A stretch of DNA of 64,000 nucleotides from an uncultured bacterium (GCA_903958395.1 CAJBSZ010000008.1:2394-66393); one strand, 5' to 3'; shown: positions 7,024 through 50,113, counted from the first letter of the stretch. Program-made: numbers and translations. The notes: generated from the sequence alone by a model not told the origin.

Positions 7024-7026
7024 CCT

Positions 7027-8004: not shown

Positions 8005-9017
8005 TGGTGACCGGCATTGGAGCTTGGTTTAAAAAGAACTACGACCGGATCATCGCGGCCGCGGTTTTGCTCGTCCTTCTGGTCTCGTTAATTGTTCTTG
8101 CTGTCATGGCCCAGGGGCAGAAAACGGCTGAGAAAAATTTCGACAGGGAGTTGGAGGCGTTGAAGCCCGCCTTTGAAAAGGCGCTGCCGCCCGATCGCAC
8201 GATTTTTCGTAGTGCCCTGACGGCGCTGGGTGCACCCTTCCAAAATGAGTCCTGGCCCCTGTCGCTGTTGACCCCGGAGCTTCGTGTTAAGTGCGTGAAC
8301 TGTGACCGGCCGATCCCCTATGCCGCGACCAACTGCACATTTATTGTGTGTGGAGGGGCACAGCCGGTCGATAAAACAGAAATCGTTGACCGGAACCATA
8401 ACGGTATTCCGGATGAATGGGAGGAAAAGCATGGGGTCTTTGCCTTCGACGGGGAGGTCGTCAATACGGATCCCGACAACGATGGATTTACCACGCGTGA
8501 GGAATATGAGTGGAAGACGGATCCCAAGGATGTTGAAAACCATCCTCCCTATCTCGCCAAGATCCGGGTTGCCGAGATCAAGCCTATTCCGTTCCGGATG
8601 ATCTTCAAGGGCGTCAGCAAGGCCGGCACAAACTTGATTTTTCAGATCAACCTCCGCTCGGGTGGCCGAACCTATTGGAAAAAGCTCGGAGAGAAAGCGG
8701 AGGGGGTCACGCTCGATTCCTATGACGAGCATGCGCAGGAGGGCGCCACGCTCACCTTGGGGCACAATGGTAAAAAGATTCCGCTGATCAAGGGGCGGCT
8801 GGTCCCCCGTGATGATTATGAGATCAAGCTGATTTCCCTCATTGATGAGGCGGTTTTCGCGGTCCGCCCGGATGTCGATTTTGATTTGAAGGGCTCCAGC
8901 TACAAGGTCAAAAAAGTTGACACACAAGGGATCCGTGTACTAATACACGACCCTTCCCGTAATCTTGATGTGTGGATTGAGCGCAAAATGTCTGACCCGC
9001 AACCCGTGAAGCAATAG
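8004..9017 (+). CDS. PilP-position membrane-anchored periplasmic protein with Cys cluster and two EF-hand-like Ca-binding loops
   Basis: N-terminal TM helix. CVNCDRPIPYAATNCTFIVCGG. DRNHNGIPDEWE and DPDNDGFTTREE both fit the D-x-[DN]-x-[DN]-G-x5-E pattern. Its start overlaps the upstream gene's stop (ATAATG). Confidence 0.5.
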   Translation: MVTGIGAWFKKNYDRIIAAAVLLVLLVSLIVLAVMAQGQKTAEKNFDRELEALKPAFEKALPPDRTIFRSALTALGAPFQNESWPLSLLTPELRVKCVNCDRPIPYAATNCTFIVCGGAQPVDKTEIVDRNHNGIPDEWEEKHGVFAFDGEVVNTDPDNDGFTTREEYEWKTDPKDVENHPPYLAKIRVAEIKPIPFRMIFKGVSKAGTNLIFQINLRSGGRTYWKKLGEKAEGVTLDSYDEHAQEGATLTLGHNGKKIPLIKGRLVPRDDYEIKLISLIDEAVFAVRPDVDFDLKGSSYKVKKVDTQGIRVLIHDPSRNLDVWIERKMSDPQPVKQ

Positions 9018-9069
9018 GAGTTCAGGGCGATTCAGTCTTTTTTTGTATTGGATATAAGGAGATAACTCT

Positions 9070-35318: not shown

Positions 35319-36734
35319 ATGACTGAATCGCCCCCTGAAACTAAAGAAGCGCTTGTGATTGATTTGAATTTTGTCCCCGTCTGGGCAAGGAAACCGCCGG
35401 AGCACCGGACCTTTGGGGGAGGCGAATCCCGTGCCCCGGACGATGACCGGGGGAGTGATTCCCGGCGGCGGGAACGCCCTCAATATCAGGATCGAAGGGT
35501 TGGGGGTGGCGGTGGGCGGCGGCAGAATATCCGCGACAAACCGCGGGGTGACGCCGGGCAGGCGCCCTTCGTTCGCGAGGTGGTCGAGCCGGTGGACGAA
35601 CGATTGGCGGCGTTGGAAATGTCGTTTCTTCCGGAGCGTCGGGGTCTGGCGCCGCTGGCGAACCGGCTTGCCAAATCGGGCCGGGCGTATTCGCTGTTTG
35701 AGGTGGCGACGCTGTTTCTGAGCAAACCGGACTACTACCTGATCAAAATTGAAGCGCCGGCCGGGCTTGAGAATTTCTCCTTTTTCCAATGCTCCGACTG
35801 CAAGACTGTATTCCTTGACCGGGACGCGGCGGTGAGTCACGCTTTTGCGAAGCATTTTGAAAAGTTCTGCGTGAAGGTTGAGCAGGAGACCGAGCCGCCC
35901 AAGGGCAGTTTTGTGTGTGTGGCCAAGTGCGGGCTTTCAGGCCAGCTGTTGGGGCCGCTGAACTATCACGGGTACAACGACAAGGTGGCGGAAATTCACC
36001 GGACCCGCTATGCGGATATGCCGCTGGAGGCGTACCGGAAGCGGATCGAGACGATTCATGACCCGGCGCTGATTGAGCAGTGGAAAGAGGAGATGCGTAA
36101 GCAGGTGAGTTACCGGTTTGGAACCGGGGACGCCGCGGTTGTCTTCACCCGGTTTTCCGAAGCCGAGGTGTATTTCCGGGAGCATTGCCTGAAGGACGCG
36201 ATTAAAGAGACGCGATCGGTGGTCATGCCGGGAGCGGTTGCCCAAGCCCTTGAGCCGGGGCCGTTGCGCCGGGTGGTCGAGGACGCCTGGGATCGTGAAT
36301 CCCGATTCCCTTTGAGGTTGTCCGTGATTCTGCGGCTTGCCTTCCGGCATTTGGGATTGCATACCTTCAAGGCGGCGGGCGGGCACACGTTTGTGACCTC
36401 CGTGGTTCCCAATGCCATGGATCCCGGGCATGCCGTGGAGGGGATCCGGGAAGTGCTTGACATCATTTCCAGCAAGCCGGGCTGTACGCGTGCGGAACTG
36501 CTCGCCCAGCTTGTTTCTGTTGCCCCGCCGACCGGCGAGGCCGGAATCGAGCCAGCCCCGGAGGCCGGGGCGAAGAAGGAAAGTGAATTGAAGCGGCAGT
36601 TGCAATGGCTGGTTGAAAAGGGGCATGTCATTGAATTTTCAGACGGTCGTATGGCCATTCCGGCCACGGCGATCGCCCGGGTTCAGATGGCACGCACTCC
36701 GGCACACGCTCCGGCGCGAAGCCGGCGAGGATAA
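35319..36734 (+). CDS. Hypothetical protein with RG/RGG-rich N-terminal region and C2H2-like zinc-finger motif
   Basis: The N-terminal 80 aa are rich in R/G/D (RRRERPQYQDRRVGGGGGRRQNIRDKPRGD). FQCSDCKTVFLDRDAAVSHAFAKHF fits C-x2-C-x12-H-x4-H. A second CVAKC...H...H stretch follows. No family recognised. Confidence 0.5.
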   Translation: MTESPPETKEALVIDLNFVPVWARKPPEHRTFGGGESRAPDDDRGSDSRRRERPQYQDRRVGGGGGRRQNIRDKPRGDAGQAPFVREVVEPVDERLAALEMSFLPERRGLAPLANRLAKSGRAYSLFEVATLFLSKPDYYLIKIEAPAGLENFSFFQCSDCKTVFLDRDAAVSHAFAKHFEKFCVKVEQETEPPKGSFVCVAKCGLSGQLLGPLNYHGYNDKVAEIHRTRYADMPLEAYRKRIETIHDPALIEQWKEEMRKQVSYRFGTGDAAVVFTRFSEAEVYFREHCLKDAIKETRSVVMPGAVAQALEPGPLRRVVEDAWDRESRFPLRLSVILRLAFRHLGLHTFKAAGGHTFVTSVVPNAMDPGHAVEGIREVLDIISSKPGCTRAELLAQLVSVAPPTGEAGIEPAPEAGAKKESELKRQLQWLVEKGHVIEFSDGRMAIPATAIARVQMARTPAHAPARSRRG

Positions 36735-36756
36735 GCAAGCGAGGAAGGAAAGCGTC

Positions 36757-37242
36757 ATGAAGACAATGATTCTGGCAGGGTTGGGAATTCTGGTTTCGGT
36801 GGGATCTTCATTTTCGGCTCCCGTTGGGAGTGGAAGCGTTTCGCCGGAATTTCAGGCGCTCTATCAAAAGGCGTTGCTGACGGGCGGAACGAATGAGGTG
36901 ATCCGGAAACAGCTGGACGCCGCCATTGGGCGGGGAACCAGCGAGATGATCGGCCCCCTTTATTTGATGCGGGGAAATCTGGCGTTGAAAGCGGGGGATG
37001 AGGAGGCGGCCCTCTCGGATTTTCTGAAAGTGACGACCTTATTTCAAAAGAACAAGGCGATTCAGCCGGAAGCGTTGTATCAAGCGGCAGCGCTTTTGGA
37101 TGCCGCGCGGGATCCGCGTGGAGCAGACCTGCGAAAGAGCCTGATTCGGGATTACCCGGGAAATGAATTTGCCTTGAAAGCGGCAGCGGCCCCTAAATTG
37201 AGCGGTACGCCAGCCAGTTCTGTGCCTGCGAAAAAGCCCTGA
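36757..37242 (+). CDS. Secreted TPR-like protein
   Basis: RBS aggaagg. Signal peptide MKTMILAGLGILVSVGSSFSAP. Helical repeat content (LYLMRGNLALKAGDEEAALSDF). Confidence 0.5.
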   Translation: MKTMILAGLGILVSVGSSFSAPVGSGSVSPEFQALYQKALLTGGTNEVIRKQLDAAIGRGTSEMIGPLYLMRGNLALKAGDEEAALSDFLKVTTLFQKNKAIQPEALYQAAALLDAARDPRGADLRKSLIRDYPGNEFALKAAAAPKLSGTPASSVPAKKP

Positions 37243-37246
37243 AGTC

Positions 37247-37870
37247 TTACCGTTTGTCCTGGGCCAGCCGTTTCATGAGGGCCTTGTAGTCGGGCGGGGG
37301 CGAAACCACATCATCCGCGGTTCCCGCTTGTCCGTCCGGACCCATGGAGGAAAGCTGAACGGTGTCCTCAAGGGCGGAATAGAGAAAGGGATGTCCCCAG
37401 AGGTCGGGAGGCAGGCTTTCCAGATAGTTACCCTTCCAGCCTTTTACGCCTGGATTCCGAACCAGGGCTTTTAAGCTTTCCTCCGTGGTAGGGTACCGGT
37501 TGCAATGAGTTCGGAACCATTCCAGGGCGGTGCGAATCACCACCAGTTCCCGCTGGGTTTGGGCGCTCCGGGTCGGGGGCCGGTAGGGAACGACCGTTTC
37601 AATCCTGGTGCATAACAGAAAGGTCACCACGAGAACACAGCCACCCAGAACCCAGATCAGGAAACGGGGCCGACTCAGGAATACCATCCAGATTGGCCGC
37701 CTGAATTCCTGTGTTCCGGGGTGTCGTTTGAGAAACGCCTCGCGCCGGGTCTTTTCCGATTTGAGGAGTTTCCATTTTTCCGGATGCCGCAGGCCTTTCC
37801 CGCATGAGGGACAGTGGGGCCCCTCGAATTTTTCGAACAGGATGCTACAGTGTGGGCAACGGTATTTCAT
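37247..37870 (-). CDS. Zinc-ribbon / single-TM / GspG-like pseudopilin-domain membrane protein lacking a prepilin signal
   Basis: N-terminus CPHCSILFEKFEGPHCPSCG. TM helix IWMVFLSRPRFLIWVLGGCVLVVTFLL. C-terminal YPTTEESLKALVRNP...NYLESLPPDLWGHPFLY...MGPDGQAGTADDV resembles the GspG core YPTTEQGLQALV...LPKDPWGNDY...LGADGKEGGEG. Confidence 0.6.
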   Translation of the reverse strand: MKYRCPHCSILFEKFEGPHCPSCGKGLRHPEKWKLLKSEKTRREAFLKRHPGTQEFRRPIWMVFLSRPRFLIWVLGGCVLVVTFLLCTRIETVVPYRPPTRSAQTQRELVVIRTALEWFRTHCNRYPTTEESLKALVRNPGVKGWKGNYLESLPPDLWGHPFLYSALEDTVQLSSMGPDGQAGTADDVVSPPPDYKALMKRLAQDKR

Positions 37871-38034: not shown

Positions 38035-40875
38035 ATGCTGACGAAAAAAAACGGTATATCGGGACTTTCGGCGGGGATAGTCTTGCTATTGGGCGTGATG
38101 TCGGGGGCGGGGCTTCCTCTTTCCGTTCTGGCGGATGAGCAGGCCGATATCCAGGCGGAATTGCAGTTTGCTTCCGAACTGATCAAGTGGCGCTTTCCGG
38201 ATTATGCCCAGAAAGCCATGGATCGGCTGTTGATCCGGTATCCCGCTGCGAAGGCTGAGGCGGCCAAGGTTCGCGTGGAAGTGCTCACCTCGCGCGGAAA
38301 ATTCGACGAAGCCGAGGCTCTGTTGAAGACCATGCCGGCGGGCACCCCGGAGACGATGGTCGTCCAACTTGCCATCGCCGACCAGTATTATGCCTGGCAG
38401 AAGATGAAAGATGCCGAGCGCGTCTACCAGGATTTCTTCAAGCAGTTTCCCAAAGGCCCCCCGGAGAACGTGGCACGGTTTTACGGGGAGTCGGCCTACA
38501 AATTCTCCCAGATGTTGCTTCTGAGCGGCGATTTGAAGGGGGGGTTGGAGGCGTATCGCCGGGTGCTGACCTGTCCCCTGAACTCTCCTGAAATTGAACG
38601 CCGCGTGAAAACCGAAATGGCCGAGCTCTGCCTGCGCGTAGCGCAGCTCCCCGCCACGACGGCGCCCGAGAAGAAGACGATCCTGGCGGAGGCTGAAAAG
38701 TTGTGCCAGGAGGTCCAGTGGAAGGGAACGGATTTGTGGTTTGCCAAGACGGTGGTGATTCTGGCACATGTCCGCATGCTTAACGGGGACAGGGCGGGGG
38801 CCCGTCGGGCGATCACGGATTATCTGCCCATGCTCATGGATGTGGATAAAATGCTGCGTGATGCCAAGGAGAACATGAAGCTCAGTCCGATGGCGGAATG
38901 CAAGTTCCTGCTGGGGACCCTTTATGAAGATGAGGGGCGTGAGGTGGTCAAGGTCAAGGCCCAGGAGGCGGATGGCATCAAGATGCTGGCGCAGGCGATG
39001 TCACAATTGTATTCGGTGGCCAAGAATTATCCCGGGAGCAGCTGGGCGCCCGAGGCGCGCCGCCGGGCCGACGCCATTGTGGATATGCTGGTGAAGGACA
39101 TGGGCAAGAAGGTGGTCAAGCCCGAGTTTGACAACACCCAGATGGTGACAGAACAGTTGAAGGAGGCTCATCTTCTTTTCCAACAGCAGGATTTCAAGAA
39201 CGCGGCTGAAAAATATGTGGATATCCTCAACATTACGGATGCCTTCAAGGGGGCGCCCGGGGCGGTGAGTGAGCTGGCCCGAAGCTATGTGGAGCTCCAG
39301 GACGAACCCTATGCCCGGGCGATGACCGAATTCCTGGCGGAACGGTTTAGCCAGACCACCAACCAGTATGAGGAGGCGGGAAATGCCTTGCTGGCGGTGG
39401 CGTCGGCCTATGATGACCGCCGCGCCTGGTTGAAGTCTGATTCGGTCTATCAGCTCTATTACCAGCGTTATCCGAATCATACTAAAGTCCCGTCCATTCT
39501 TTTCCGGCAGGGTGAGACGGCGCTGCGGGCGACCAACACCGTGGAGGCCTTGCAAAATTTCCAGAGAATTGTGGAAGACTATCCGAGAGCGCGGGTTTAT
39601 CCCGATGCGCTGAGCCGGCAGGCTTACTGTTTATCCATGCAGGGTGACCACACCAACGCCGTGCCGGTTCTGACCAATTATATTGCCCAGTTGTCTGCGG
39701 GAGTGGAGGTGCTGTCCGCGCGCCTGAGGCTTGCGGATGAATACCGGTCCGCCGGCATGACGGTTTCGGCTCTGAATGAGTATGCCCGCCTGCTGAAGCA
39801 GATCACCCAGGAGGGGGTGTCCTTGGGGGGAACTCCCGAGGATGCCACCCGGGTGAAAAAGATTGCGGAACTGGCTCTCTATTCCAAGGCCCAGTGTTAT
39901 ACCCGGCTTCGGGAACCGGCCAATCAGGTTCCCCTGTATCAGGCCAAGGCCATTGAGGGGTATGAGTTGTTCCTGAAGGAGTATCCCAAATCCGAGTTTG
40001 CGCCGTCGATTTTGGGCGCGATGGGAACCCTGTATTACCTGTTGAACAAGCCGGATGAGGCGGGGAAGACGTTTGACCGCCTGGCCAAGAACTATCCGGA
40101 GAGCCAGCAGGCGTTGAACATGGTTTTTGTGCGCGCGGATTCGCTCATGAATATGGGGGAGAAGGCCAAGGCCGTGACGGTGTATGCGGAGATGGCCAAG
40201 ACCCCGCAACTGTTCAATGCCTCCCAGTTCCTGCGGGCGGGGCGGGTGCTGTTGGATGCCCAGGAGTTTGAAACGGCCATACTTTTGCTCTCAGAAGCCC
40301 GAAAATCCAAGGATGTGCCGATCTGGCAGGGGGCGACAGTGGCGCTTGGGTGGGCATTGGCCGGTGCCGGGAAGTATGAGGAGTCCGTCAAGGTTTTTGA
40401 AGATTTTCTTGGAAAATACCAGAAATCTGGCTACGTGATCGATGTCAACCTGGCCCTCAGCCGGTGTTATGCGGAACTCGCCAAGAAGGCCTCGGATCCC
40501 CAGCAATCGAAGGATTTGTTCAGCAAGGCGTTTTCCGCCATGGGCAAGGTGCGCCAGTATTCGCGCGAGCCGGATATGATGGTCAAGGCGGATATTGAAA
40601 TGGCGGGCATTCAGGTATTGATGGGCGACAAGATGGGTGCCTTGGCCTCCTACCAGAGAATCCTGTTATTCGTGGATCCCTCCAATGTCAAAGTACGTCC
40701 CCATGTTGAAACGGCCTTTGATCGGAGTCTCCCGCTGTTCCGTGAAACCGGAAAGATCGATGGCCTGCAGGAAGCCTGCGAAACCTACATAAAGCAGTTC
40801 CCGCAGGGGCAGTTTATTGCGAAGGCGCGTCAGGGCCGCGACGAGGCGAAGGCCAAGCTAGCGTCGGGCCGGTAA
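38035..40875 (+). CDS. Large secreted tetratricopeptide-repeat protein (946 aa)
   Basis: Signal peptide GLSAGIVLLLGVMSGAGLPLSVLA, then many TPR-like helical pairs over the whole length. Confidence 0.7.
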   Translation: MLTKKNGISGLSAGIVLLLGVMSGAGLPLSVLADEQADIQAELQFASELIKWRFPDYAQKAMDRLLIRYPAAKAEAAKVRVEVLTSRGKFDEAEALLKTMPAGTPETMVVQLAIADQYYAWQKMKDAERVYQDFFKQFPKGPPENVARFYGESAYKFSQMLLLSGDLKGGLEAYRRVLTCPLNSPEIERRVKTEMAELCLRVAQLPATTAPEKKTILAEAEKLCQEVQWKGTDLWFAKTVVILAHVRMLNGDRAGARRAITDYLPMLMDVDKMLRDAKENMKLSPMAECKFLLGTLYEDEGREVVKVKAQEADGIKMLAQAMSQLYSVAKNYPGSSWAPEARRRADAIVDMLVKDMGKKVVKPEFDNTQMVTEQLKEAHLLFQQQDFKNAAEKYVDILNITDAFKGAPGAVSELARSYVELQDEPYARAMTEFLAERFSQTTNQYEEAGNALLAVASAYDDRRAWLKSDSVYQLYYQRYPNHTKVPSILFRQGETALRATNTVEALQNFQRIVEDYPRARVYPDALSRQAYCLSMQGDHTNAVPVLTNYIAQLSAGVEVLSARLRLADEYRSAGMTVSALNEYARLLKQITQEGVSLGGTPEDATRVKKIAELALYSKAQCYTRLREPANQVPLYQAKAIEGYELFLKEYPKSEFAPSILGAMGTLYYLLNKPDEAGKTFDRLAKNYPESQQALNMVFVRADSLMNMGEKAKAVTVYAEMAKTPQLFNASQFLRAGRVLLDAQEFETAILLLSEARKSKDVPIWQGATVALGWALAGAGKYEESVKVFEDFLGKYQKSGYVIDVNLALSRCYAELAKKASDPQQSKDLFSKAFSAMGKVRQYSREPDMMVKADIEMAGIQVLMGDKMGALASYQRILLFVDPSNVKVRPHVETAFDRSLPLFRETGKIDGLQEACETYIKQFPQGQFIAKARQGRDEAKAKLASGR

Positions 40876-40891
40876 TAAGGATGAACGAAAC

Positions 40892-41680
40892 ATGAACCGC
40901 AAGATCGTGATTGCTCTGGCTCTGGTGATGGGGGCCCTGGTGATATCCGCCCGGGTCGCCCCGGCCGAAATTTTGAGGAAAACGGATGGCAAGGAGCTGG
41001 CCGGAGTCCGGATCAAGTGGTTTGAGGTCCGGCGCGAATATCAGGTTGAAGGCGCTGATGGCTCCATGATCCCGGTTTCGGTCGACGAGGTGGATTCACT
41101 CGAGATTACCAAGCCGGCCGAATTTGACAAGGCTGCCCAAGCCATTGCCGCGCGCCAGTATGATGCGGCCATTCCGATCCTCGAGGATCTGACGATCCGG
41201 TATAAGCGGTTGCAGTGGGATGCCCGGGCGGGTGAACTACTGGCCAATGCCTATTTTGCGAAGACGGATTTCAAGAAGGCGGCTCAGGTCATGGGAGATC
41301 TCATGGAGAGTACCCCCAGGGGCCAGATCACGGATGAGCAGTACGGTTTGTATTGGACCGCCCTGATGGGGGCGCAAATGACGGCGGTGCTGAAGAAGCA
41401 GTTGAACGAGGCCATCGCGGGGGATTCCAAGACCCTGGCCGCGCTGGCGATTGTCAGGCGCGGTGACTTGAACAAGGCGGACGGGAAACGTGAAGATGCG
41501 ATTTTGGATTACCTTCGGGCTGTTTTGCTGTATGAGGAAGCGCGCGGAGTTCATCCTGAGGCGCTTTTCAAAGCCGTGCAGGTGCTGGATGAAATGCGGG
41601 ATCCGCGTGCCGATGAGCTGAAGAAGAAACTGTTGTCGCTGTATCCGGACAGCCCTTATGCAAGGAAGCTGGGCGGATGA
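40892..41680 (+). CDS. Secreted TPR-like periplasmic protein
   Basis: Signal peptide MNRKIVIALALVMGALVISARVAPA. C-terminal TPR-like helices. 16-nt gap from the upstream TPR gene. Confidence 0.55.
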   Translation: MNRKIVIALALVMGALVISARVAPAEILRKTDGKELAGVRIKWFEVRREYQVEGADGSMIPVSVDEVDSLEITKPAEFDKAAQAIAARQYDAAIPILEDLTIRYKRLQWDARAGELLANAYFAKTDFKKAAQVMGDLMESTPRGQITDEQYGLYWTALMGAQMTAVLKKQLNEAIAGDSKTLAALAIVRRGDLNKADGKREDAILDYLRAVLLYEEARGVHPEALFKAVQVLDEMRDPRADELKKKLLSLYPDSPYARKLGG

Positions 41681-41727
41681 GGGATTGTGGGATTGATTAT
41701 TAAAGATAACGAAGCAAGGAGAAACGG

Positions 41728-42594
41728 GTGATGAAAAAAGCGTTCTGGATGGGATTGGTTGTGGTGGTTTTCAGCATGATCGTGTCGGCCCAGTGGGCCA
41801 AGGCGGCGGATCCGGCTCCTGCGGCGGCGGCTGGCGGAGCGGCGGCGGTGGCAAGCGCGCCTGCGCCTGCGCCTGCGCCTGCGGCGGCGGCGGGCGGCTT
41901 GGAATTGGATAAGGCCGAGGCCGAGGGCGCCAAAAAGGGCGGCCATGGGGGCGGCGGCTTTCTGGCAATCGTTCTGAATGCCGGCTGGTTCGGTATGGTC
42001 ATCTGGCTGATGCTAATTGCCTGTTCAGTCGTCAGTGTCGCATTGATTGTGGACTCCTTCATCAACATCAAGGATGCCAAGATCATGCCTCCGGATCTGA
42101 TCAGCAATGTCCGGACCGCCATGGAGCAGGGAGACCTGATGAAGGCGATTCAGCATTGCGACAGTACGCCGGGCCAGTTGGCGAACATTCTTAAAGCCGG
42201 GTTTGCGCAGGTTGAGGAAGGGTATGAGGTGGTTCAGGATGCCGTGAGCGTGGCGGCCGACTTGGAGACCGAAAAGTTGCTCAGTCGCGTCACCTATCTG
42301 AGCGTTATCGCGAACACAACGCCGATGCTGGGACTGATCGGAACGGTGCAGGGAATGATCTTCGCCTTCCTGACCCTGGGTACGATGGAGGCGGGCGCCG
42401 CGCAGTCGGCCATGCTGGCCGTCAACATTTCGCACGGGTTGTGGGCCACGGCCATCGGTCTGGGAACCGCCGTGCCGGCGACGATCTTCTTCTATTATTT
42501 CAAGAATCGGTCCATGAGCAGCATTCTGCGGATGGAAGCCCTGACGCTCGACATGATCAAGTCGCTGCGTAATGTCGAAGTCGTCGCGGAATAA
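41728..42594 (+). CDS. exbB: MotA/TolQ/ExbB-family proton channel with signal peptide and Ala/Pro-rich N-terminal extension
   Basis: RBS aaggag. Signal peptide, then an AP-rich low-complexity region. TM core with LSVIANTTPMLGLIGTVQGMIFAF, as in TolQ/ExbB. Confidence 0.8.
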   Translation: MMKKAFWMGLVVVVFSMIVSAQWAKAADPAPAAAAGGAAAVASAPAPAPAPAAAAGGLELDKAEAEGAKKGGHGGGGFLAIVLNAGWFGMVIWLMLIACSVVSVALIVDSFINIKDAKIMPPDLISNVRTAMEQGDLMKAIQHCDSTPGQLANILKAGFAQVEEGYEVVQDAVSVAADLETEKLLSRVTYLSVIANTTPMLGLIGTVQGMIFAFLTLGTMEAGAAQSAMLAVNISHGLWATAIGLGTAVPATIFFYYFKNRSMSSILRMEALTLDMIKSLRNVEVVAE

Positions 42595-42614
42595 TCATCC
42601 GGAGAGTTCCTCGT

Positions 42615-43034
42615 ATGAAGGAAAAAAGAGAAGAAGAAGCGCTGAACGGCAATCTGACCGCCATGATCGACGTGGTGTTCCAGTTGATCATTTTCTTTGT
42701 CTGTACCGTCAATATGCAGGAAAAGGCGATTGACGACCGGATCAAGCTCGCCATGGCCCCGAACGGTAAGGTGAGTAACACCAAAAATCCGTACGAGGTC
42801 AAGGTGGATGTCAGCGATAATGGACTCGTGTCCATTGCGCGAACGGCGATGCCGGTTCAGATGCTGACTACCATCCTGAGGAAAGCGAGACTGGATGCGC
42901 GGGGAAATGAAGTCCCTGTTCTGATTCGGGCCGATGCCCGGGTGAAGCATGAGACCGTTCGGAAGGTCATGGATGCCTGTACGGCGGCCGGACTCTACAA
43001 AATTAAGTTTACGGCGCTGAAGGAAAGAGCCTAG
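42615..43034 (+). CDS. exbD: ExbD/TolR-family protein (copy 1)
   Basis: NLTAMIDVVFQLIIFFVCT TM anchor and a periplasmic domain. Confidence 0.8.
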   Translation: MKEKREEEALNGNLTAMIDVVFQLIIFFVCTVNMQEKAIDDRIKLAMAPNGKVSNTKNPYEVKVDVSDNGLVSIARTAMPVQMLTTILRKARLDARGNEVPVLIRADARVKHETVRKVMDACTAAGLYKIKFTALKERA

Positions 43035-43047
43035 GCCGGAGGATAAC

Positions 43048-43461
43048 ATGGCTAGAAAAAGACGGCGAAGTACGTTTACCGCGGGGGAACTGAACCTGAC
43101 GGCCATGATCGACGTGGCGTTTCAGCTGCTTAGTTTCTTCCTGGTCTCGGCCCATCCGGTGGATGTGTTGACCAATCTGGATGTTTTCCGGCCCCAGGCG
43201 GAAAAGCCATCCCAGCAGGAGTCACAGGCGAAAATCATCCGGGTTACAGTTTTTCCGGACGGTTTTACTATCAATGACCGCGGGGTAGACAGTCGACAGT
43301 TGACGAGCCTGCTCGGAAAGCTGGCGGATCTTGATAAGACGCAAACCGTTCTGATTCAATGTACAAACGAGTCGCCGCATGGAAAGCTGATCGAGCTTTT
43401 GGATATTTGCTCCAAACTCGGATTAGTCAACCTGTCCGTGGTTAGTTCCGGCGGCGCCTAG
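43048..43461 (+). CDS. exbD: ExbD/TolR-family protein (copy 2)
   Basis: LNLTAMIDVAFQLLSFFLVSA TM anchor. Confidence 0.8.
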   Translation: MARKRRRSTFTAGELNLTAMIDVAFQLLSFFLVSAHPVDVLTNLDVFRPQAEKPSQQESQAKIIRVTVFPDGFTINDRGVDSRQLTSLLGKLADLDKTQTVLIQCTNESPHGKLIELLDICSKLGLVNLSVVSSGGA

Positions 43462-43536
43462 AGTATTTTGTAATATCTCGGGATTGTGCGGTAATACGAA
43501 GTGTTGTTCTGAGAATCCGATTTCAGGGACTCTGAC

Positions 43537-45048
43537 ATGAATATTGATTACGATAAATTGATGTTTACGTTGAAAAAGCATGCATGGGGGCCTGTTGGCT
43601 CTGTGTTTTTTCATGTTTTGGGACTGGTTCTCCTGATTCAATTCTCAGTCGGTGTCTCGACTGAAAAGGCGCCCGAGGTTGAAGTGACGATGATGGAGAC
43701 CAAGGCGGAAGTCCTGGAGAAGGTGGAAGAGGTCGTGAAGCAGGAGTTGGAGAAGCCGCCGGAGCAGGAGGTGGTTTCCGACCGTCCGACGGATGCGACA
43801 GTCAGCACCATGGAAGTTCCCTCGGATGCACCGGGAAGCGGGCTTGGCAATTCGGATGGTGCGGGAATTGGTAGCGGCGATCCGTCGCTGGCGGCTGGAT
43901 TTGAAATTGCCATGGCGAAAAGTCCCCTCGTGATGAGGGGGCTGTACGCCCAGCGGACGGCCGGCGGGCGCAAGGGTGCCTTGAGCGCGTTCGGAGGCTC
44001 CGGTCGAGGGGAAGATGCCGTGATGCGGGCGTTGCGGTGGCTGAAGGAGAAGCAGGATGCCGATGGGTCATGGGTGAAAGCGGATGGTAATCCGGGACCG
44101 GCCATGGCAGGACTGGCGCTTCTGTGTTTCCTGGCTCACGGTGAAACTCCCGCCTCGCCCGAGTTCGGTGCCACTGTTGAAAAGGCCATGAAGTATATTG
44201 TGAGCAAGCAAAATGCTAAAGGAAGCTTTTCCGGGAATCCCTATGAGCATGGGATTTGTACCTATGCTATTGCGGAAGGCTTCGGGCTGACCAAGATCAT
44301 GGCGCTGAAAGAGGCCATGGAAAAGGGGATTCAGGTGGTCATTGACGGGCAGCAGACGGGCGGGGGATATAATTATAATTACGAAAAAAAGGAACGGTGG
44401 GACTTGTCCGTAGCCGGGTGGCAGTTTCAGGCGATGAAGGCGGCGAAAATGGCGGGAAGTTCCAACCCCAGGCTGGAGGATGCGATTGCCAGCGGCATTA
44501 AATTTTTAAGGAATACAGCCCATCAGCCTACGAAGGGGTTTGGATATGCCAGCCCGAGTTCATCGCCCTCCATGACTGGTGCCGGAACCTTGTGTCTCCA
44601 GTTGCTCGGTAAACCGGACTGTCCTGAGGTGCGGAGCGGGCTGAAGTGGATGGAGGAGACAAAGAGTCCGGTATTTGATGTGACTTGGGCGAAAGAGGAT
44701 GCGACGCCAGCGCCTGCCGCGGACAAGGGCAAAGCAGCTCCAAAAGCCGGGGCGAAAAATCCGGTTTATGCTTGGTACTATATTACTCAGGCGAAGTTCC
44801 AAAAGGGCGAATCGGACTGGAAGGAATGGAATCCGAAATTTACAACCGCGCTGATCCGAAACCAGATTGTCGAGGGTAAACTGGGGCATTGGGAGGGCGG
44901 GGATCACGGAGCGAAGGTTTATACCACCGCGCTTTGCACCTTGATGCTGGAAGTTTATTACCGTTACCTGCCGACCTTCAAGCATGTTGAGGTGGCCGCT
45001 CCCGCCGCCGCCGTCAAATCCGATGACGTTGTTGTGGATGTGAAGTAG
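43537..45048 (+). CDS. TonB-position protein: N-terminal TM anchor plus Glu/Pro/Val-rich spacer plus squalene-cyclase/prenyltransferase-like (QW-motif) alpha/alpha-toroid domain
   Basis: TM helix VGSVFFHVLGLVLLIQF. Charged spacer EKAPEVEVTMMETKAEVLEKVEEVVKQELEKPPEQEV. QW-like repeats LRWLKEKQDADGSW, KYIVSKQNAKGSF and IQVVIDGQQTGGGY. No TonB C-terminal domain. Confidence 0.6.
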   Translation: MNIDYDKLMFTLKKHAWGPVGSVFFHVLGLVLLIQFSVGVSTEKAPEVEVTMMETKAEVLEKVEEVVKQELEKPPEQEVVSDRPTDATVSTMEVPSDAPGSGLGNSDGAGIGSGDPSLAAGFEIAMAKSPLVMRGLYAQRTAGGRKGALSAFGGSGRGEDAVMRALRWLKEKQDADGSWVKADGNPGPAMAGLALLCFLAHGETPASPEFGATVEKAMKYIVSKQNAKGSFSGNPYEHGICTYAIAEGFGLTKIMALKEAMEKGIQVVIDGQQTGGGYNYNYEKKERWDLSVAGWQFQAMKAAKMAGSSNPRLEDAIASGIKFLRNTAHQPTKGFGYASPSSSPSMTGAGTLCLQLLGKPDCPEVRSGLKWMEETKSPVFDVTWAKEDATPAPAADKGKAAPKAGAKNPVYAWYYITQAKFQKGESDWKEWNPKFTTALIRNQIVEGKLGHWEGGDHGAKVYTTALCTLMLEVYYRYLPTFKHVEVAAPAAAVKSDDVVVDVK

Positions 45049-45054
45049 CGCCGG

Positions 45055-46842
45055 ATGAGCGAGGGCGGTCACATTCGACTTCTTCCCGCCGATGTGGCGA
45101 ACAAAATCGCGGCGGGGGAAGTGGTCGAGAGACCCGCCTCAGTGCTCAAGGAAATCCTCGAAAACGCCATTGATGCCGGTGCCTCCCAGATTGATGTGGA
45201 GGCCGTCGCGGGAGGAACCCGGCTGGTGTCGGTGTCGGACAATGGCTCAGGGATGAATCGTGACGATGCGTTGCTGTCCATTGAGCGGCATGCCACCAGC
45301 AAGATTCACACGGCCGCCGACATCGAACACATTCATACGCTGGGCTTCCGGGGGGAGGCGTTGGCGGCCATTTCATCTGTCTCACGCTTCCGTATCCGAA
45401 CGCGGTGTCATGATGAATTGGCCGGCACGGAACTGGTGGTCAGCGGCGGCAAGTTGTTGGATGTGAAGGATGCCGGGTGTCCACCGGGAACGATCCTTGA
45501 AATCCGCGATCTATTCTTCAATCTTCCCGCCCGCCGCAAGTTTTTAAGGTCACCCCAGACCGAAACCACCCATATCCGGCAGATGTTCCTGTTGCAGGCC
45601 TTGGCCTGGCCTGCTGTGGGAATGAGCCTGACTCTGGATGGCCGGAAGTCGTGGGCTCTGGCACCCGGTGCCACGCCCCTGGAGCGGATCCGGGAGCTTT
45701 TCGGGCAGGCTCTGATTGACGGGCTCCGGCCCTTGGAACAGGGGCGAGGTGATATTAAACTGTCGGGATATGTAAGCCTGCCCGCACTGACCCGGGGGGA
45801 TCGTACGGAACAGTATGTGTTTGTCAATGGACGGCCTGCGTCGGCCCCGGTGATCGGGTATGCGATCAACGAGGCGTTTCATTCGCTGATTCCGGCCGGT
45901 CGGCATCCCTATATTTTCATGTATCTTGACCTCGAGCCCGGCCTGGTGGATGTGAATGTCCACCCGACGAAGAAGGAGGTTCGATTCAGGCGTTCCTCGG
46001 ATGTGCGCGATGCGATCATTGGCGCGATCCGGAACGCCCTGGCGAAGTCCGGAGCCGCCTTTGTGGCGGGTCAGACTCCGATCCCGGAACCGGTGCCCCC
46101 GATGCCGGCGGCGGTTACCCCGCTTCTAAAAATCGATGATCTCCCGGCATCGCGTGTGTTTTCCTATCCCCGGCTGCCCCCGATTGAGCCCCGTCCGGTA
46201 ACGGTCGAGTCACGCGCCGCCCAAAAGCCGGGGGACGTCGTGAAGGCGGCCCCGAAGGCGCCCTGGACGTGGTGCCGGGTGGTGGGGCAGATCAATGGCC
46301 TGTATGTGTTGCTGGAGACGGAGGATGGTTTTGTGGTGATGGATCCCCACGCGGCGCATGAACGGGTGCTGTTCGAGAAACTGCTGAATGCGGTTGAGCA
46401 CGGCCAGGTCGAGAGTCAGGGCCTGTTGGTTCCCGAGACAGTTGAACTTCAGCCGCGGGATGCCTTGTATGTCCGGAAGAATATCGAATTGATCAAGACG
46501 CTCGGGGTTGGGGTTTCTGAGTTCGGGGGCGACACGTTTGTGGTGGACGCCCTGCCCCGGGGCATGGACGGCCTCGGTATCAAGGACATGCTGATTGATG
46601 TCGCCCGTCATCTGGAGACCTTGGGGGAGCGGGGCAGCCACAGCCGGTGGCGCGAGGAGGCGATAGCCCAGGCGGCCTGTAAGGCGGCGGTGAAGGCGCG
46701 CGACCGGCTGAGCCTGTCCGAGGTGGAGCAGCTGGTCATAGCCCTGGCTTCTGCAGAAATGCCCTACACCTGCCCGCATGGCCGGCCGACGTTGATTTAC
46801 ACTTCATTCAGGGAACTGGATCGTAAGTTCGGTCGCGAATAA
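45055..46842 (+). CDS. mutL: DNA mismatch repair protein MutL
   Basis: IRLLPADVANKIAAGEVVERPASVLKEILENAIDAGA...HTLGFRGEALAAI, and a C-terminal dimerisation domain. Confidence 0.9.
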   Translation: MSEGGHIRLLPADVANKIAAGEVVERPASVLKEILENAIDAGASQIDVEAVAGGTRLVSVSDNGSGMNRDDALLSIERHATSKIHTAADIEHIHTLGFRGEALAAISSVSRFRIRTRCHDELAGTELVVSGGKLLDVKDAGCPPGTILEIRDLFFNLPARRKFLRSPQTETTHIRQMFLLQALAWPAVGMSLTLDGRKSWALAPGATPLERIRELFGQALIDGLRPLEQGRGDIKLSGYVSLPALTRGDRTEQYVFVNGRPASAPVIGYAINEAFHSLIPAGRHPYIFMYLDLEPGLVDVNVHPTKKEVRFRRSSDVRDAIIGAIRNALAKSGAAFVAGQTPIPEPVPPMPAAVTPLLKIDDLPASRVFSYPRLPPIEPRPVTVESRAAQKPGDVVKAAPKAPWTWCRVVGQINGLYVLLETEDGFVVMDPHAAHERVLFEKLLNAVEHGQVESQGLLVPETVELQPRDALYVRKNIELIKTLGVGVSEFGGDTFVVDALPRGMDGLGIKDMLIDVARHLETLGERGSHSRWREEAIAQAACKAAVKARDRLSLSEVEQLVIALASAEMPYTCPHGRPTLIYTSFRELDRKFGRE

Positions 46843-46902: not shown

Positions 46903-47532
46903 ATGAATAATGTCACGATAACCGATATGATCATGCAGGGTTGGCCGGTGCTGTCGATCCTGTTGCTGATGTCTATTTTTTCCATCACCATTATTGTGGA
47001 TCGCGTGCGGTTGATCCGCCGGTATCAGGTAAACGCACGGTCGTTCATGGCGCGACTGCTCCGGATTCTGGCGGAGCAGGGAAAGCCCCAGGCGGTGGAG
47101 TTCTGCAGGAAATATGAATTTCCAATCGCCGCAGTATCCCTCGAAATTCTGACACAGCAGGGGGGGCGGGCGGCCAAGGAGCGGGCGATGGAGCATGCGA
47201 TGCAGGCTCAGGTCCGGAAGCTGGAGGCCATGGTTCCGGTTTTGGGAACCGTCGCGGGAACGGCGCCTTTTGTAGGGCTGTTCGGGACGGTGGTCGGTAT
47301 CATCAAGGCGTTCGCCAGTATTGCAGCCAACGCAGGCGGAGGGCCGGAAGTGGTGTCCGCCGGCATTGCCGAGGCGTTGATCACCACAGCCTGCGGCCTG
47401 GTGGTCGCGATTCCCGCCCTGATTGGCTACAACTATTGCATCCATATGTCCGAGGTGCTCATGACGGATGTCGAGCTTTCGGTCTATGATCTGGTGGAGA
47501 CGGTCTGCAAGGACGAGGGACCCGCGGCATGA
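46903..47532 (+). CDS. MotA/TolQ/ExbB-family proton channel (second motor)
   Basis: GWPVLSILLLMSIFSITIIV...VPVLGTVAGTAPFVGLFGTVVGIIKAF. Confidence 0.75.
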   Translation: MNNVTITDMIMQGWPVLSILLLMSIFSITIIVDRVRLIRRYQVNARSFMARLLRILAEQGKPQAVEFCRKYEFPIAAVSLEILTQQGGRAAKERAMEHAMQAQVRKLEAMVPVLGTVAGTAPFVGLFGTVVGIIKAFASIAANAGGGPEVVSAGIAEALITTACGLVVAIPALIGYNYCIHMSEVLMTDVELSVYDLVETVCKDEGPAA

Positions 47533-47954
47533 AGGCCCCCGCCAAGGTGCTTGGAAAACACCGCATCATGGCCGAGATCAACATGATCCCGTTCATTGAT
47601 GTGGCGCTGGTGTTGTTGCTGATCTTTATGATCATGACGCCCCTGCTGGTGCAGTCACAACTCAAGATCAATCTTCCCGGCATCAAAAAAGTCGAGTCTG
47701 ATCAGCCACGCAAACAGACCCTCACCGTCCAGGTGGACCGTGCGGGAACAGCCTATCTCAGCGGTATGCCCGTGGCGCCTGATTTGCTGGAAGGCCGGCT
47801 TCGTCAGTTGTTGACCGATCCCGAACATCAGCCCGTTATCGTGGAGGCCGATAAGGATGTCCCGTTCCAGCATGTGGTGACCGTGATGGATACTGCCAAG
47901 CGGATCGGGGCAACAAAGCTGGCCGTCTCCGTCAAGAAGCAAGGGTCGAAATAG
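47529..47954 (+). CDS. ExbD/TolR-family protein (second motor)
   Basis: INMIPFIDVALVLLLIFMIMTP. ATGA overlap with the upstream gene. Confidence 0.75.
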   Translation: MKAPAKVLGKHRIMAEINMIPFIDVALVLLLIFMIMTPLLVQSQLKINLPGIKKVESDQPRKQTLTVQVDRAGTAYLSGMPVAPDLLEGRLRQLLTDPEHQPVIVEADKDVPFQHVVTVMDTAKRIGATKLAVSVKKQGSK

Positions 47955-48033: not shown

Positions 48034-49353
48034 TTATTCCGCGAAGACATACAGGATCATCTTCTGTCTGAGCGCGGGGGCGACGAAGTCCCGGAGGGTT
48101 CCGTAGCGCAGTTTTGCGGGCGCAAAAATCAACAGGACGGAGGGAGCCTCTTTCCGTGTCTTTAAGGCGGGCTCCAGGGCGGCTGGCGCAGGGATCGGGA
48201 TGCGGGTTTCATGAAACACCGGGGCGGAGTCGTCGCCTTTCCATTCGGATTCCACCAGGATCAGTTCCCCGGTCGTGACGCCTTCCCTTGTGCCCAGATG
48301 AAGTTCGGCAACCTTGTCGAAACGATCTTCCCGCTTCCTGAATTTTTCATTGGGCAGGAACGCCCTGAAATAGGGATGTCCGGGAGGAGGCGGCTCGACA
48401 CGAATGCCGCGCTCATTGTCGAGGGAATCCAGGAGGTGGGCGAGGGGCTGAACGTCATGGAGGGGGAGAGCCTCGTCGGGGGTCAGCGTTACGAAAGCAT
48501 CCCGATCAGTGGTTGAATAACGGGATAGGGCCGCCAGCATACCGTTCCGTGATCGATTGGTGTTGAGGGCGTGTTCCTGGCTGTCCAGCAGGGTGTAGGC
48601 CAGGTTGGTGCCATCGGGTGCGACCAGCAGGGAGAGATCGAAGCGGTGGGGAAGGGTGTCCCGGTAGAATGGCTCAAGGGTAATTTCGACAAGGTGGTTG
48701 GTGGGAAGCACATGATCCGGGTTGGGGATCTGGAAGGTATAGACCTCTTGCTTCGGAGCGGTGCGGGGGACATCCAGGACGGAGTAGCCCTCGTTGTAAA
48801 TCGAAGCAATGCTGCCGGGGCCGTAGGCGTCTGCGGCATAGACCCTGCCGGTGGGCGGGTCGCCTGCGGAAACCCACTCTGATCCGGTGAAGACCAGGCC
48901 GGTTTCCGGCAGGGTTTTTCCGGATCGGGTGTCTTGAATCAGGTGTTCGAAGGGAAGGTGAAAGATCGAGCCGGTCGGGGACTGGGTGTCTGCACTATGA
49001 AAAACCATTTTAACACGGTCCCCTTTGGGCCAGAACCGGAGTTGGGACGGATCGACGCCCCGGCCGGGCTCCAGGCCGATGAATCGGAGCGATTCATGGA
49101 TATCGAGCGCGGAGGCTTGTGAAACGGCGAGCGCCTCATAATCCTTTCCGCTTTCCCGGGTGACCAGGGGGAACTCCACAGGGTCAGTGGCTTTCAGGGC
49201 TGTGGTTGTTGCGGCGATGCGGACGATCTGTCCTGTCCGATCAGCTATTAATCCGGGACGGACGAAGAAGTTGGACTGGGCTTCGCAGAGGGAGAATCCC
49301 ATGAACAGGGTAAGGCCTGTCACTCCGGCAGTGATGTGGGTAATAAGTTTCAT
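48034..49353 (-). CDS. Secreted hypothetical protein (about 440 aa)
   Basis: Signal peptide MKLITHITAGVTGLTLFMGFSLCEAQS at M48 of the listed ORF. No recognised domain. Confidence 0.5.
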   Translation of the reverse strand: MKLITHITAGVTGLTLFMGFSLCEAQSNFFVRPGLIADRTGQIVRIAATTTALKATDPVEFPLVTRESGKDYEALAVSQASALDIHESLRFIGLEPGRGVDPSQLRFWPKGDRVKMVFHSADTQSPTGSIFHLPFEHLIQDTRSGKTLPETGLVFTGSEWVSAGDPPTGRVYAADAYGPGSIASIYNEGYSVLDVPRTAPKQEVYTFQIPNPDHVLPTNHLVEITLEPFYRDTLPHRFDLSLLVAPDGTNLAYTLLDSQEHALNTNRSRNGMLAALSRYSTTDRDAFVTLTPDEALPLHDVQPLAHLLDSLDNERGIRVEPPPPGHPYFRAFLPNEKFRKREDRFDKVAELHLGTREGVTTGELILVESEWKGDDSAPVFHETRIPIPAPAALEPALKTRKEAPSVLLIFAPAKLRYGTLRDFVAPALRQKMILYVFAE

Positions 49354-49450
49354 AAGACAGTGAATCCTATCACGGGAACCTGTTTGGGAACAGGATTGAC
49401 TTCTTTTCTTCCAATAAAGTAATATTTCACCTCTTAAAAGGAGTAAAACC

Positions 49451-50113
49451 ATGGCGTTTAGACCAGAAATTATGCCGTTTCTCATGATTGCCATAGCCTT
49501 GGGGGCTATTCTCGTTGGGGCGTTACGGCTGGGGCGTGTTTCCTGGCGTAAGACCTGGGCCTTCAGTGGAATTCTGACGGTGATTCTGATTGGCTACCTG
49601 TTGGTCTTTTTCCGGGATCCTGTCAGGGTGCCCTCTCCGGATCCGGCAGATATCATGGCGGGCGCCGAGGGGAAGATTATGTCGGTTGTGGAGGTGGACG
49701 AGCCTGAGTTTTTGAAGACCAAGGCCGTTAAGATCAGTATTTTCCTCAGCCTGATTGATGTGCATGTGAACCGGGCTCCGATTTCCGGAAAAGTGGAGCA
49801 TGCCCAGTATTATCCCGGGGCGCGGTATTTCACGTTTGAGGAAAAGTCCTCCGAATTGAACCAGCACAGTTCGATTGTGATCCGGGGTGAGAAGACCACC
49901 TGCCTGGTCAAACAGATTGTTGGCCCTGTGGCGCGCCGGGTGGTGTACTGGGTGGAGCCTGGCCAGGAAATCAAGAAGGGGGATTCCATTGGCATGATGA
50001 AGTTCGGGTCCCGCCTTGACATGATTTTTCCAAGGGCTGACGTGGAGGTTCTCGTGAAAAAGGGCGACAAGGTTCGCGCCGGGGAAACCGTCGTGGCCCG
50101 CCTGAGGAATTAA
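49451..50113 (+). CDS. psd: Phosphatidylserine decarboxylase (short archaeal-type proenzyme)
   Basis: FFRDPVRVPSPDP...ISIFLSLIDVHVNRAPISGKV...GSRLDMIFP, with the GS self-cleavage region. 220 aa. Confidence 0.8.
   Translation: MAFRPEIMPFLMIAIALGAILVGALRLGRVSWRKTWAFSGILTVILIGYLLVFFRDPVRVPSPDPADIMAGAEGKIMSVVEVDEPEFLKTKAVKISIFLSLIDVHVNRAPISGKVEHAQYYPGARYFTFEEKSSELNQHSSIVIRGEKTTCLVKQIVGPVARRVVYWVEPGQEIKKGDSIGMMKFGSRLDMIFPRADVEVLVKKGDKVRAGETVVARLRN

Follow-up and report, generated by a model that had tools for sequence, protein, structure and literature searches.

A candidate toroid-headed force transducer in the TonB/TolA slot of a TPR-TPR-ExbB-ExbD-ExbD operon from an uncultured bacterium

Energy transfer to the outer membrane is, in textbooks, the work of TonB and TolA only, plus the gliding and type IX secretion system (T9SS) motors. 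The motif by which TonB and TolA bind to their motor subunits, ExbB and TolQ, is termed SHLS (PMC12905483), and a 2025 study was the first to suggest that other heads can ride on the same motors (Williams-Jones et al., 2025, Mol Biol Evol, PMC12204202). In the transducers proposed there, a von Willebrand factor type A (vWA) head is joined through a disordered linker to an SHLS helix; a proposed 'motor box' in the linker, placed just after the transmembrane (TM) helix, engages ExbD/TolR. These transducers are encoded in a tetratricopeptide repeat (TPR)/TolQ/TolR/TolR grammar. Tichowtungia aerotolerans (Kiritimatiellota), in which the class was first found, has no recognisable TolA or TonB, Kiritimatiella has tolB-pal and no recognisable TolA, and a Lentisphaerae metagenome-assembled genome (MAG) has tolQ-tolR and no TolA (PMC12204202). 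In Fibrobacter succinogenes, cellulose induces a gene cluster (FSU_2396-2403) that encodes OmpA, TPR, TPR, ExbB, ExbD, ExbD and TonB, and the TPR proteins of this cluster belong to a surface cellulose-binding complex. Here, we analyse a 64,000-nucleotide stretch of DNA from an uncultured bacterium (GCA_903958395.1, CAJBSZ010000008.1:2394-66393; the window), in which a six-gene operon follows the same order as FSU_2397-2403, the canonical TonB version, but ends in a gene for a 503-residue protein, X503, that is not a TonB. The X503 gene occupies the slot normally held by a TonB or TolA gene, and its sequence features suggest that X503 is probably a periplasmic force transducer powered by the proton motive force (PMF), analogous to TonB and TolA and carrying a different head.

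The six-gene operon and its conservation

A first-pass annotation of the window had read this locus as a TPR-TPR-ExbB-ExbD-ExbD block followed by a last gene that keeps a TM anchor and a charged, E/P/V-rich spacer and has a C-terminal half of the prenyltransferase/squalene-cyclase type with QW-like motifs. Each part of this description is borne out below. The six open reading frames (ORFs; Table 1) are co-directional and separated by intergenic gaps of only 13-75 nt, a tight spacing that is consistent with a single transcription unit; a promoter/terminator scan of the locus was uninformative, because its counts were at shuffle expectation. The two TPR proteins, described as secreted and of 946 and 262 aa, and the ExbB subunit, described as having a signal peptide and an Ala/Pro-rich extension, were also recovered as claimed: TPR946, TPR262 and ExbB288 all have signal-peptide-like N-termini, and ExbB288 also has the N-terminal Ala/Pro-rich extension. 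Pfam agrees with the assignments. TPR946 matches TPR_6 (1e-20) and YfiO and scores 118.8 bits in four stretches against the NCBIfam model TIGR02795 (tol_pal_ybgF; cut-off 90.1), and TPR262, for which 14 orthologs were aligned, matches YfiO (5e-7).

The conservation of this arrangement was assessed in a one-genome-per-species scan that found 570 relatives; the best 78 loci, which were analysed, come from MAGs labelled Kiritimatiellia, Lentisphaeria, Victivallales, Verrucomicrobiota or Planctomycetes-Verrucomicrobia-Chlamydiae (PVC) group. Synteny of the last gene with exbBD held: in phmmer searches with the window proteins, 74 copies of X503 could be assessed, of which 52 stand immediately downstream of the ExbD pair, 15 are unlinked and 7 are in tandem, with another 10 copies at contig edges. 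The full TPR946-TPR262-ExbB-ExbD-ExbD-X503 order was found in 43 of the 52 loci having at least 6.5 kb upstream, and because so many loci repeat it, the six-gene arrangement is not due to chance. The order is permuted in two loci, L059, where X503 is ahead of the TPR genes, and L074, where it is about 3 kb upstream of them, yet X503 stays within 3 kb in both. No TonB or vWA-transducer homolog occurs within 10 kb on either side in any of the 78 loci.

The genes upstream of X503 encode a complete 5:2-type proton motor that, with its intact proton-path residues, looks functional. ExbB288 matches Pfam MotA_ExbB (6e-23), and ExbD139 and ExbD137 match Pfam ExbD (6e-21 and 2e-18, respectively); in NCBIfam, the best model for ExbB288 is TolQ and the nearest for both ExbD paralogs is TolR, with all scores under the cut-offs. 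In ExbB288, the Thr pair and Pro of TM2/TM3 (Thr206, Thr241 and Pro250) and Trp93 are 100% conserved among 53 orthologs, as is the TM residue Asp22 of ExbD137 among 56, while the TM residue Asp19 of ExbD139 is 98% conserved among 58. Since two different ExbD genes are always retained, ExbD139 and ExbD137 probably form a heterodimer. An anti-phage defence system, for example a Zorya-type motor, was considered and rejected, as none of the six operon proteins has a match among the PADLOC models.

Anchor, tether and toroid head of X503

The AlphaFold2 (AF2) model of X503, built on 83 homologs with a mean predicted local distance difference test (pLDDT) score of 78, begins with a short N-terminal helix and a single TM helix at aa 19-38 (nt 43591-43650). 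This helix reads GS22VFFH26VLGLVLL33IQFS37, the exact Ser-x3-His-x6-Leu-x3-Ser spacing of TonB and TolA, and of the 212 ORFs of 100 aa or more in the six frames of the window, only X503 matched the SHLS regular expression. The Gly-Pro preceding the helix and the SHLS Ser and His are invariant in the N-termini of 30 diverse X503 homologs. At two loci, Asn replaces the SHLS His, a His-to-Asn change that E. coli TonB tolerates at this position.

Behind the anchor, the acidic linker of 96 residues (14 E, 12 V and 8 P, net charge -11) has a pLDDT below 50 throughout aa 39-134 except at aa 46 and 74, and at this length, it is long enough to span the periplasm. A consensus PEVEVxMME..LE follows the TM helix across X503 homologs; at the motor-box place, E. 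coli TonB reads PISVTMVTPADLE. The corresponding PEVEVTMME segment of X503 sits where the motor box of the vWA transducers has been placed (PMC12204202).

The C-terminal part of X503 is an (alpha/alpha)6 toroid, and its fold neighbours are all alpha/alpha barrels. X503 matches Pfam SQHop_cyclase_C at 9e-7, a marginal match with 28.6 bits against a cut-off of 26.1, alongside weak, sub-threshold matches to Prenyltrans and SQHop_cyclase_N, and it contains strict QW motifs at aa 164 and 216 (RALRWLKEKQDADGSW and KAMKYIVSKQNAKGSF). The head thus falls in the terpenoid-cyclase/six-hairpin superfamily both by sequence and by fold. Most members of this superfamily are enzymes, and X503 has many invariant polar residues, so that X503 could be imagined as an enzyme of the periplasm, anchored in the inner membrane and active on isoprenoid lipids or glycans, that is co-transcribed with the motor and not mechanically coupled to it. 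Against this, X503 has neither a DxDD (D.DD) motif nor a CGEQ thioester, and a scan for D.C, C.G and CHG, taken as proxies for prenyltransferase and LanC zinc sites, found none; the NCBIfam cyclase models give 18-26 bits against cut-offs of 323-851, and the single toroid domain is only 10-18% identical to any solved enzyme. An enzyme would also leave the conserved SHLS anchor and the disordered tether of about 100 residues unexplained, and the place after exbD-exbD is strictly conserved. We consider this explanation improbable.

A cryptic TonB_C domain was looked for in X503 and is absent by Pfam, NCBIfam and AF2: PF03544 had no Pfam match at E<=0.1 and no NCBIfam match at 0.01, and because the toroid runs to aa 476 and is followed by a 27-residue tail, there is no room for a hidden one. 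X503 itself (DDVVVDVK) and most of its linked and orphan homologs (DDVVIEIL, DDDLGLDL, DDLIID and the like) end in a tail of the same type. With its acidic pair and alternating hydrophobic residues, the extreme C-terminus resembles a docking or beta-augmentation peptide, and the acidic tail is a candidate docking peptide for the TPR proteins.

Glycan binding is frequent among alpha/alpha barrels, and the two large periplasmic TPR proteins of the operon could themselves be effectors. X503 might accordingly be a static anchor or regulator whose toroid binds peptidoglycan or a fixed polymer and positions or gates ExbBD, with the TPRs or another protein carrying the force. However, it is established that the ExbD/TolR/MotB subunit makes the cell-wall contact in characterised 5:2 motors, orphan X503 paralogs that lack a motor of their own would be hard to explain, and SHLS helices are a feature of the partner that transmits the force (PMC12905483). 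A purely static role is, in our judgement, very improbable.

The reading of X503 as a force transducer also has to be weighed against several results that count against it. A second N-terminal type, having neither His nor Asn at the SHLS position, occurs in nine linked loci, and no ExbB/ExbD columns were found that co-vary with the N-terminal type (His versus no His). AF2 gives no strand for the putative motor box. A profile of 30 X503 N-termini retrieved no TonB or TolA chain from the PDB sequences, and statistical homology of this region to TonB/TolA was therefore dropped; because that search came back empty, the likeness of the anchor is one of motif level. The position of ExbB288 that matches E176 of E. 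coli ExbB in a manual alignment is His/Gln rather than Glu, a feature of the clade. No outer-membrane partner was detected by Pfam scans in the operon or the window. Finally, the gene directly after X503 is mutL in 27 of 44 loci that span different classes; mutL is thus equally syntenic, and conserved adjacency alone is therefore no proof of a functional link.

Table 1. Coordinates of the operon genes and of the features within X503, in window numbering
Feature	Position	Strand	Description and basis
TPR946	38035..40875	+	ORF call; secreted, 946 aa; four CpoB/YbgF-like TPR units
TPR262	40892..41680	+	ORF call; secreted, 262 aa; small N-terminal domain, then TPR/YfiO-like C-terminal part
ExbB288	41728..42594	+	ExbB/TolQ-type proton-channel subunit; Pfam MotA_ExbB
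ExbD139	42615..43034	+	First ExbD/TolR paralog; Pfam ExbD
ExbD137	43048..43461	+	Second, heterologous ExbD/TolR paralog; Pfam ExbD
X503	43537..45048	+	503 aa; N-in TM anchor, disordered linker, (alpha/alpha)6 toroid; proposed force transducer
SHLS motif S22-x3-H26-x6-L33-x3-S37	43600..43647	+	Inside the X503 TM helix; regular expression
Acidic disordered linker, aa 39-134	43651..43938	+	AF2 pLDDT, composition
Candidate motor box P46-E54 (PEVEVTMME)	43672..43698	+	Conserved beta-strand-like segment within the linker
(alpha/alpha)6 toroid head, aa 142-476	43960..44964	+	AF2 high confidence; two strict QW motifs
C-terminal tail ending SDDVVVDVK	44965..45045	+	Conserved acidic, alternating-hydrophobic ending

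Paralogs, neighbouring genes and the Tol and mucin-uptake alternatives

The X503 family is large, with more than 2,000 homologs at 90% clustering and 6,277 clusters at 50% identity (E<=1e-30). Orphan X503 paralogs lie in unrelated housekeeping contexts, and a common neighbourhood of orphan and tandem paralogs was sought and not found, nor was a link of the orphan paralogs to tolB-pal through an FGGY kinase. By analogy, the orphan and tandem pattern looks like the paralogy of TonB. X503-type toroids also occur in larger proteins: in the giant proteins P0172, P0185 and P0195 (1563-1799 aa), the toroid is combined with PD40 (TolB-type beta-propeller) repeats, and in P0121, P0142 and P0165, it is joined to a DUF6288, a DUF2135 or an alpha-2-macroglobulin (A2M) thioester-containing domain (TED)-like region.

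The closest competitor to the transducer proposal is a Tol-Pal surrogate. The operon could be the lineage's equivalent of TolQ-TolR-TolA-CpoB, with X503 standing for TolA and serving outer-membrane stabilisation and constriction via TolB and Pal encoded elsewhere. The ExbB and ExbD proteins match TolQ and TolR best, TPR946 scores above the CpoB/YbgF cut-off, and the locus context is of the housekeeping kind (cls-like phospholipase D (PLD), mutL, psd, pssA and clpB) and is kept across classes; toroids are fused to PD40 repeats in the giant proteins, and a recognisable TolA is missing in Kiritimatiella, in Tichowtungia (which also has no TonB) and in the Lentisphaerae MAG (PMC12204202). However, no tolB or pal occurs in the window or beside any X503 copy examined, a more TolQ/TolR-like pair is encoded in the same window (46903-47954), the multiple orphan or tandem copies of X503 within a genome are a pattern seen with TonB more than with TolA, and the X503 linker is disordered rather than helical. 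A Tol-Pal surrogate appears rather unlikely to us.

That second ExbB/ExbD pair (46903-47954, +; 209 and 141 aa) lies just after mutL (45055-46842, +), which itself begins 6 nt past the X503 stop codon, placing a gene for DNA repair in tight linkage with an envelope operon. The pair is closer to TolQ and TolR than the operon motor is (125 and 94 bits), retains the canonical Glu in TM3 and has no adjoining gene for TonB, TolA or another transducer; it is kept near the X503 operon in L001, L002, L014 and L015 and is inverted in L005, L006 and L020. The family seems to vary in its number of subunits: in some loci, L010, L023 and L063 among them, the sextet is followed by an additional (third) ExbD-like ORF or by a second ExbD-X503 module. 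In L020 (4486-13279), an ExbB-ExbD-ExbD-X503(-MutL) block occurs twice with identical scores, which may reflect a recent tandem duplication or an assembly artefact.

A further reading, as a polymer importer, was suggested by a weak match of TPR262 to the NCBIfam model NF052542, 'Mul1B family putative transporter subunit' (E 0.002), by which the locus would be a homolog of the Akkermansia mucin-uptake locus MUL1, where mul1B-mul1A lie by a biopolymer transport gene. The mucin transport gene mul1A is amuc_0544, and since Amuc_0546 is listed as a biopolymer transporter, MUL1 appears to adjoin ExbD-type genes; MUL function reportedly needs pili as well, and the window holds a PilM-secretin cluster. 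But the TPR262 score is 17.3 bits against a cut-off of 75 and covers the signal-peptide region, the match was not reproduced in 10 TPR262 orthologs, and neither TPR946 nor X503 matches a Mul family. With its score below the cut-off and none in the orthologs, the Mul1B identity of TPR262 was not upheld, and homology of the locus to MUL1 has a low probability.

The cluster in question, a type IV pilus or type II secretion system (T2SS)-like one (5299-12036, +), comprises PilM (5299-7023), two ORFs that have no Pfam match and a 988-aa secretin (9070-12036), with a Ser/Thr kinase (795-3218) upstream. Closer to the operon and divergent from it is the gene for a 207-aa protein (37247-37870, -) with an architecture unusual for a pseudopilin, in which a zinc-ribbon-like CxxC…CxxC N-terminus and a TM helix are combined with a pseudopilin domain of the GspG type (T2SSG, 2e-19). 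Many of the closest loci (L001-L010, L014, L016 and L033) have its homolog beside the operon, and a few that are more distant have it at another place in the locus. Next to the 207-aa protein gene, at 36613-37242 (+; likely true start near 36757), lies the gene for a small secreted TPR protein, paralogous to the C-terminal half of TPR262. In L005, L006, L008, L010 and L033, the same position holds a full-length TPR262-like protein of about 290 aa, so the window and its nearest relatives appear to hold an N-terminally shortened copy. A gene at 35319-36734 (+) encodes a 471-aa protein with an Arg/Gly-rich N-terminus and no Pfam match; at least 15 loci carry a strongly conserved counterpart ahead of the operon (E down to 0). 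On the other side, a secreted 486-aa protein (48034-49494, -), also with no Pfam match, recurs near X503 copies in L001, L002, L014, L015, L019, L020, L040, L042 and L060.

A proposed mechanism and its place among known systems

In the mechanism that we propose, the SHLS helix of X503 would dock on the rim of the ExbB pentamer, as those of TonB and TolA do, and the EVEVTMME strand after the helix would act as a motor box engaging the ExbD periplasmic domains, so that proton flow would be turned into a pull, through the tether, on the toroid head. The head would grip a partner or ligand in the envelope, and the secreted TPR946 and TPR262 would serve as periplasmic adaptors, as CpoB does for TolA, possibly by binding the acidic C-terminal tail of X503. 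Orphan X503 paralogs in the same genome would share the one motor, as TonB paralogs do. For the output of such a system, we lean slightly towards a role at the outer membrane in taking up or otherwise handling glycans or other polymers, which is suggested by glycan binding in alpha/alpha barrels, by the expansion of the paralogs and by the analogy with Fibrobacter. Tol-like outer-membrane maintenance is ranked second, and is suggested by the TolQ/TolR/CpoB affinities, the housekeeping context, the reported lack of TolA and the PD40 fusions.

A PMF-driven ExbBD stator energising a different periplasmic effector had been the central idea of the first-pass annotation, and synteny, the SHLS motif and the proton-path residues lend it support as far as sequence can. 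The accompanying claim, that the system corresponds to none described, stands in part only: the toroid head is undescribed in the literature found, whereas the gene grammar is known from the vWA systems (PMC12204202) and from the TonB cluster of Fibrobacter. A more far-reaching version can be put forward tentatively, as possible rather than probable, in which SHLS-anchored toroids would form a third major class of force transducers beside TonB_C/TolA_III and vWA. This class would be ancient and very abundant in the Kiritimatiellia/Lentisphaeria branch of the PVC group, with one dedicated heteromeric ExbB-ExbD-ExbD' motor and its TPR adaptors serving several paralogous heads. By holding on to glycans or outer-membrane partners, these heads would drive polymer uptake that is independent of TonB receptors or would replace the missing TolA.

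If X503 is indeed a transducer, the SHLS anchor and tether would be a modular chassis for different periplasmic effectors, and a toroid transducer with its own motor and TPR partners would be conserved across thousands of sequence clusters. It would offer a concrete candidate for what lies behind the absent TolA or TonB in some PVC bacteria, and could account as well for the way in which these polysaccharide specialists power the processes of their envelope. Cultivated Kiritimatiellales and Lentisphaerae would allow a direct test. X503 does not replace TonB universally, because TonB-dependent transporter (TBDT) and TonB_C genes are present in some Kiritimatiellota (Pontiella).

Set beside the established systems, X503 resembles TonB in being encoded last, in its N-in TM helix with SHLS, in its extended linker, in its orphan paralogs and in the proton-path residues kept by its motor. 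Unlike TonB, it lacks a TonB_C domain and has an acidic linker with 8 Pro in place of a Pro-rich rod; no TonB-dependent receptor was detected nearby, Pfam scans of the window's main predicted genes giving no match to TonB_dep_Rec or Plug; unlike TonB systems, ExbB288 has His/Gln at the E176-equivalent position. The Tol system is approached by the motor, which is nearest to TolQ/TolR, by TPR946, which passes the CpoB/YbgF model, by the SHLS anchor and by the housekeeping context. In contrast to TolA, X503 lacks the domain II helix, its linker being disordered, and lacks TolA_III; no tolB or pal adjoins the window operon as it would in Tol-Pal, and TPR946, with 946 aa and four YbgF-like units, far exceeds CpoB (about 260 aa). 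The head shares QW repeat motifs with squalene-hopene cyclases, but it is 12-17% identical to class II terpene/squalene-hopene cyclases and to A2M/complement TED toroids, and the DxDD and CGEQ motifs of these are absent; unlike the beta-gamma didomain cyclases, X503 has a single toroid domain that is periplasmic and tethered to the inner membrane by its SHLS helix.

The closest likeness is to the vWA transducers of Tichowtungia and other PVC bacteria, which also have an SHLS TM helix with a conserved His, a disordered linker of about 100 residues and a globular head other than that of TonB, and both systems are present in Kiritimatiellota. The Tichowtungia locus (L079) encodes a TPR protein of 938 aa, a 262-aa protein, an ExbB of 247, ExbDs of 143 and 146, and two vWA proteins of 476 and 474, which is the same gene layout as that of the window operon with close protein sizes (938 versus 946 aa and 262 versus 262 aa). 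The two motors are 29% identical in ExbB and 25-31% in ExbD. The TPR proteins of the window and of L079 have no BLAST match to each other, and hhalign of the TPR262 profile with the 262-aa Tichowtungia protein was not significant, so that homology of the accessory proteins was rejected; a phmmer search with the Tichowtungia vWA transducer found no match in the window or the 78 loci. With motors only 25-31% identical, dissimilar accessory proteins and no vWA or TonB homolog, the toroid system is therefore a distinct and distantly paralogous one built on the same plan. No mention of a toroid, prenyl(transferase) or squalene(-cyclase) head occurs in PMC12204202 or its supplements, and in our literature search, no paper named squalene-cyclase-like repeat proteins together with ExbB or TolQ. 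The concept is thus not wholly new: SHLS-anchored transducers other than TonB and TolA had already been proposed on such motors, and what the window adds is the head, an (alpha/alpha)6 toroid where Tichowtungia has a vWA fold.

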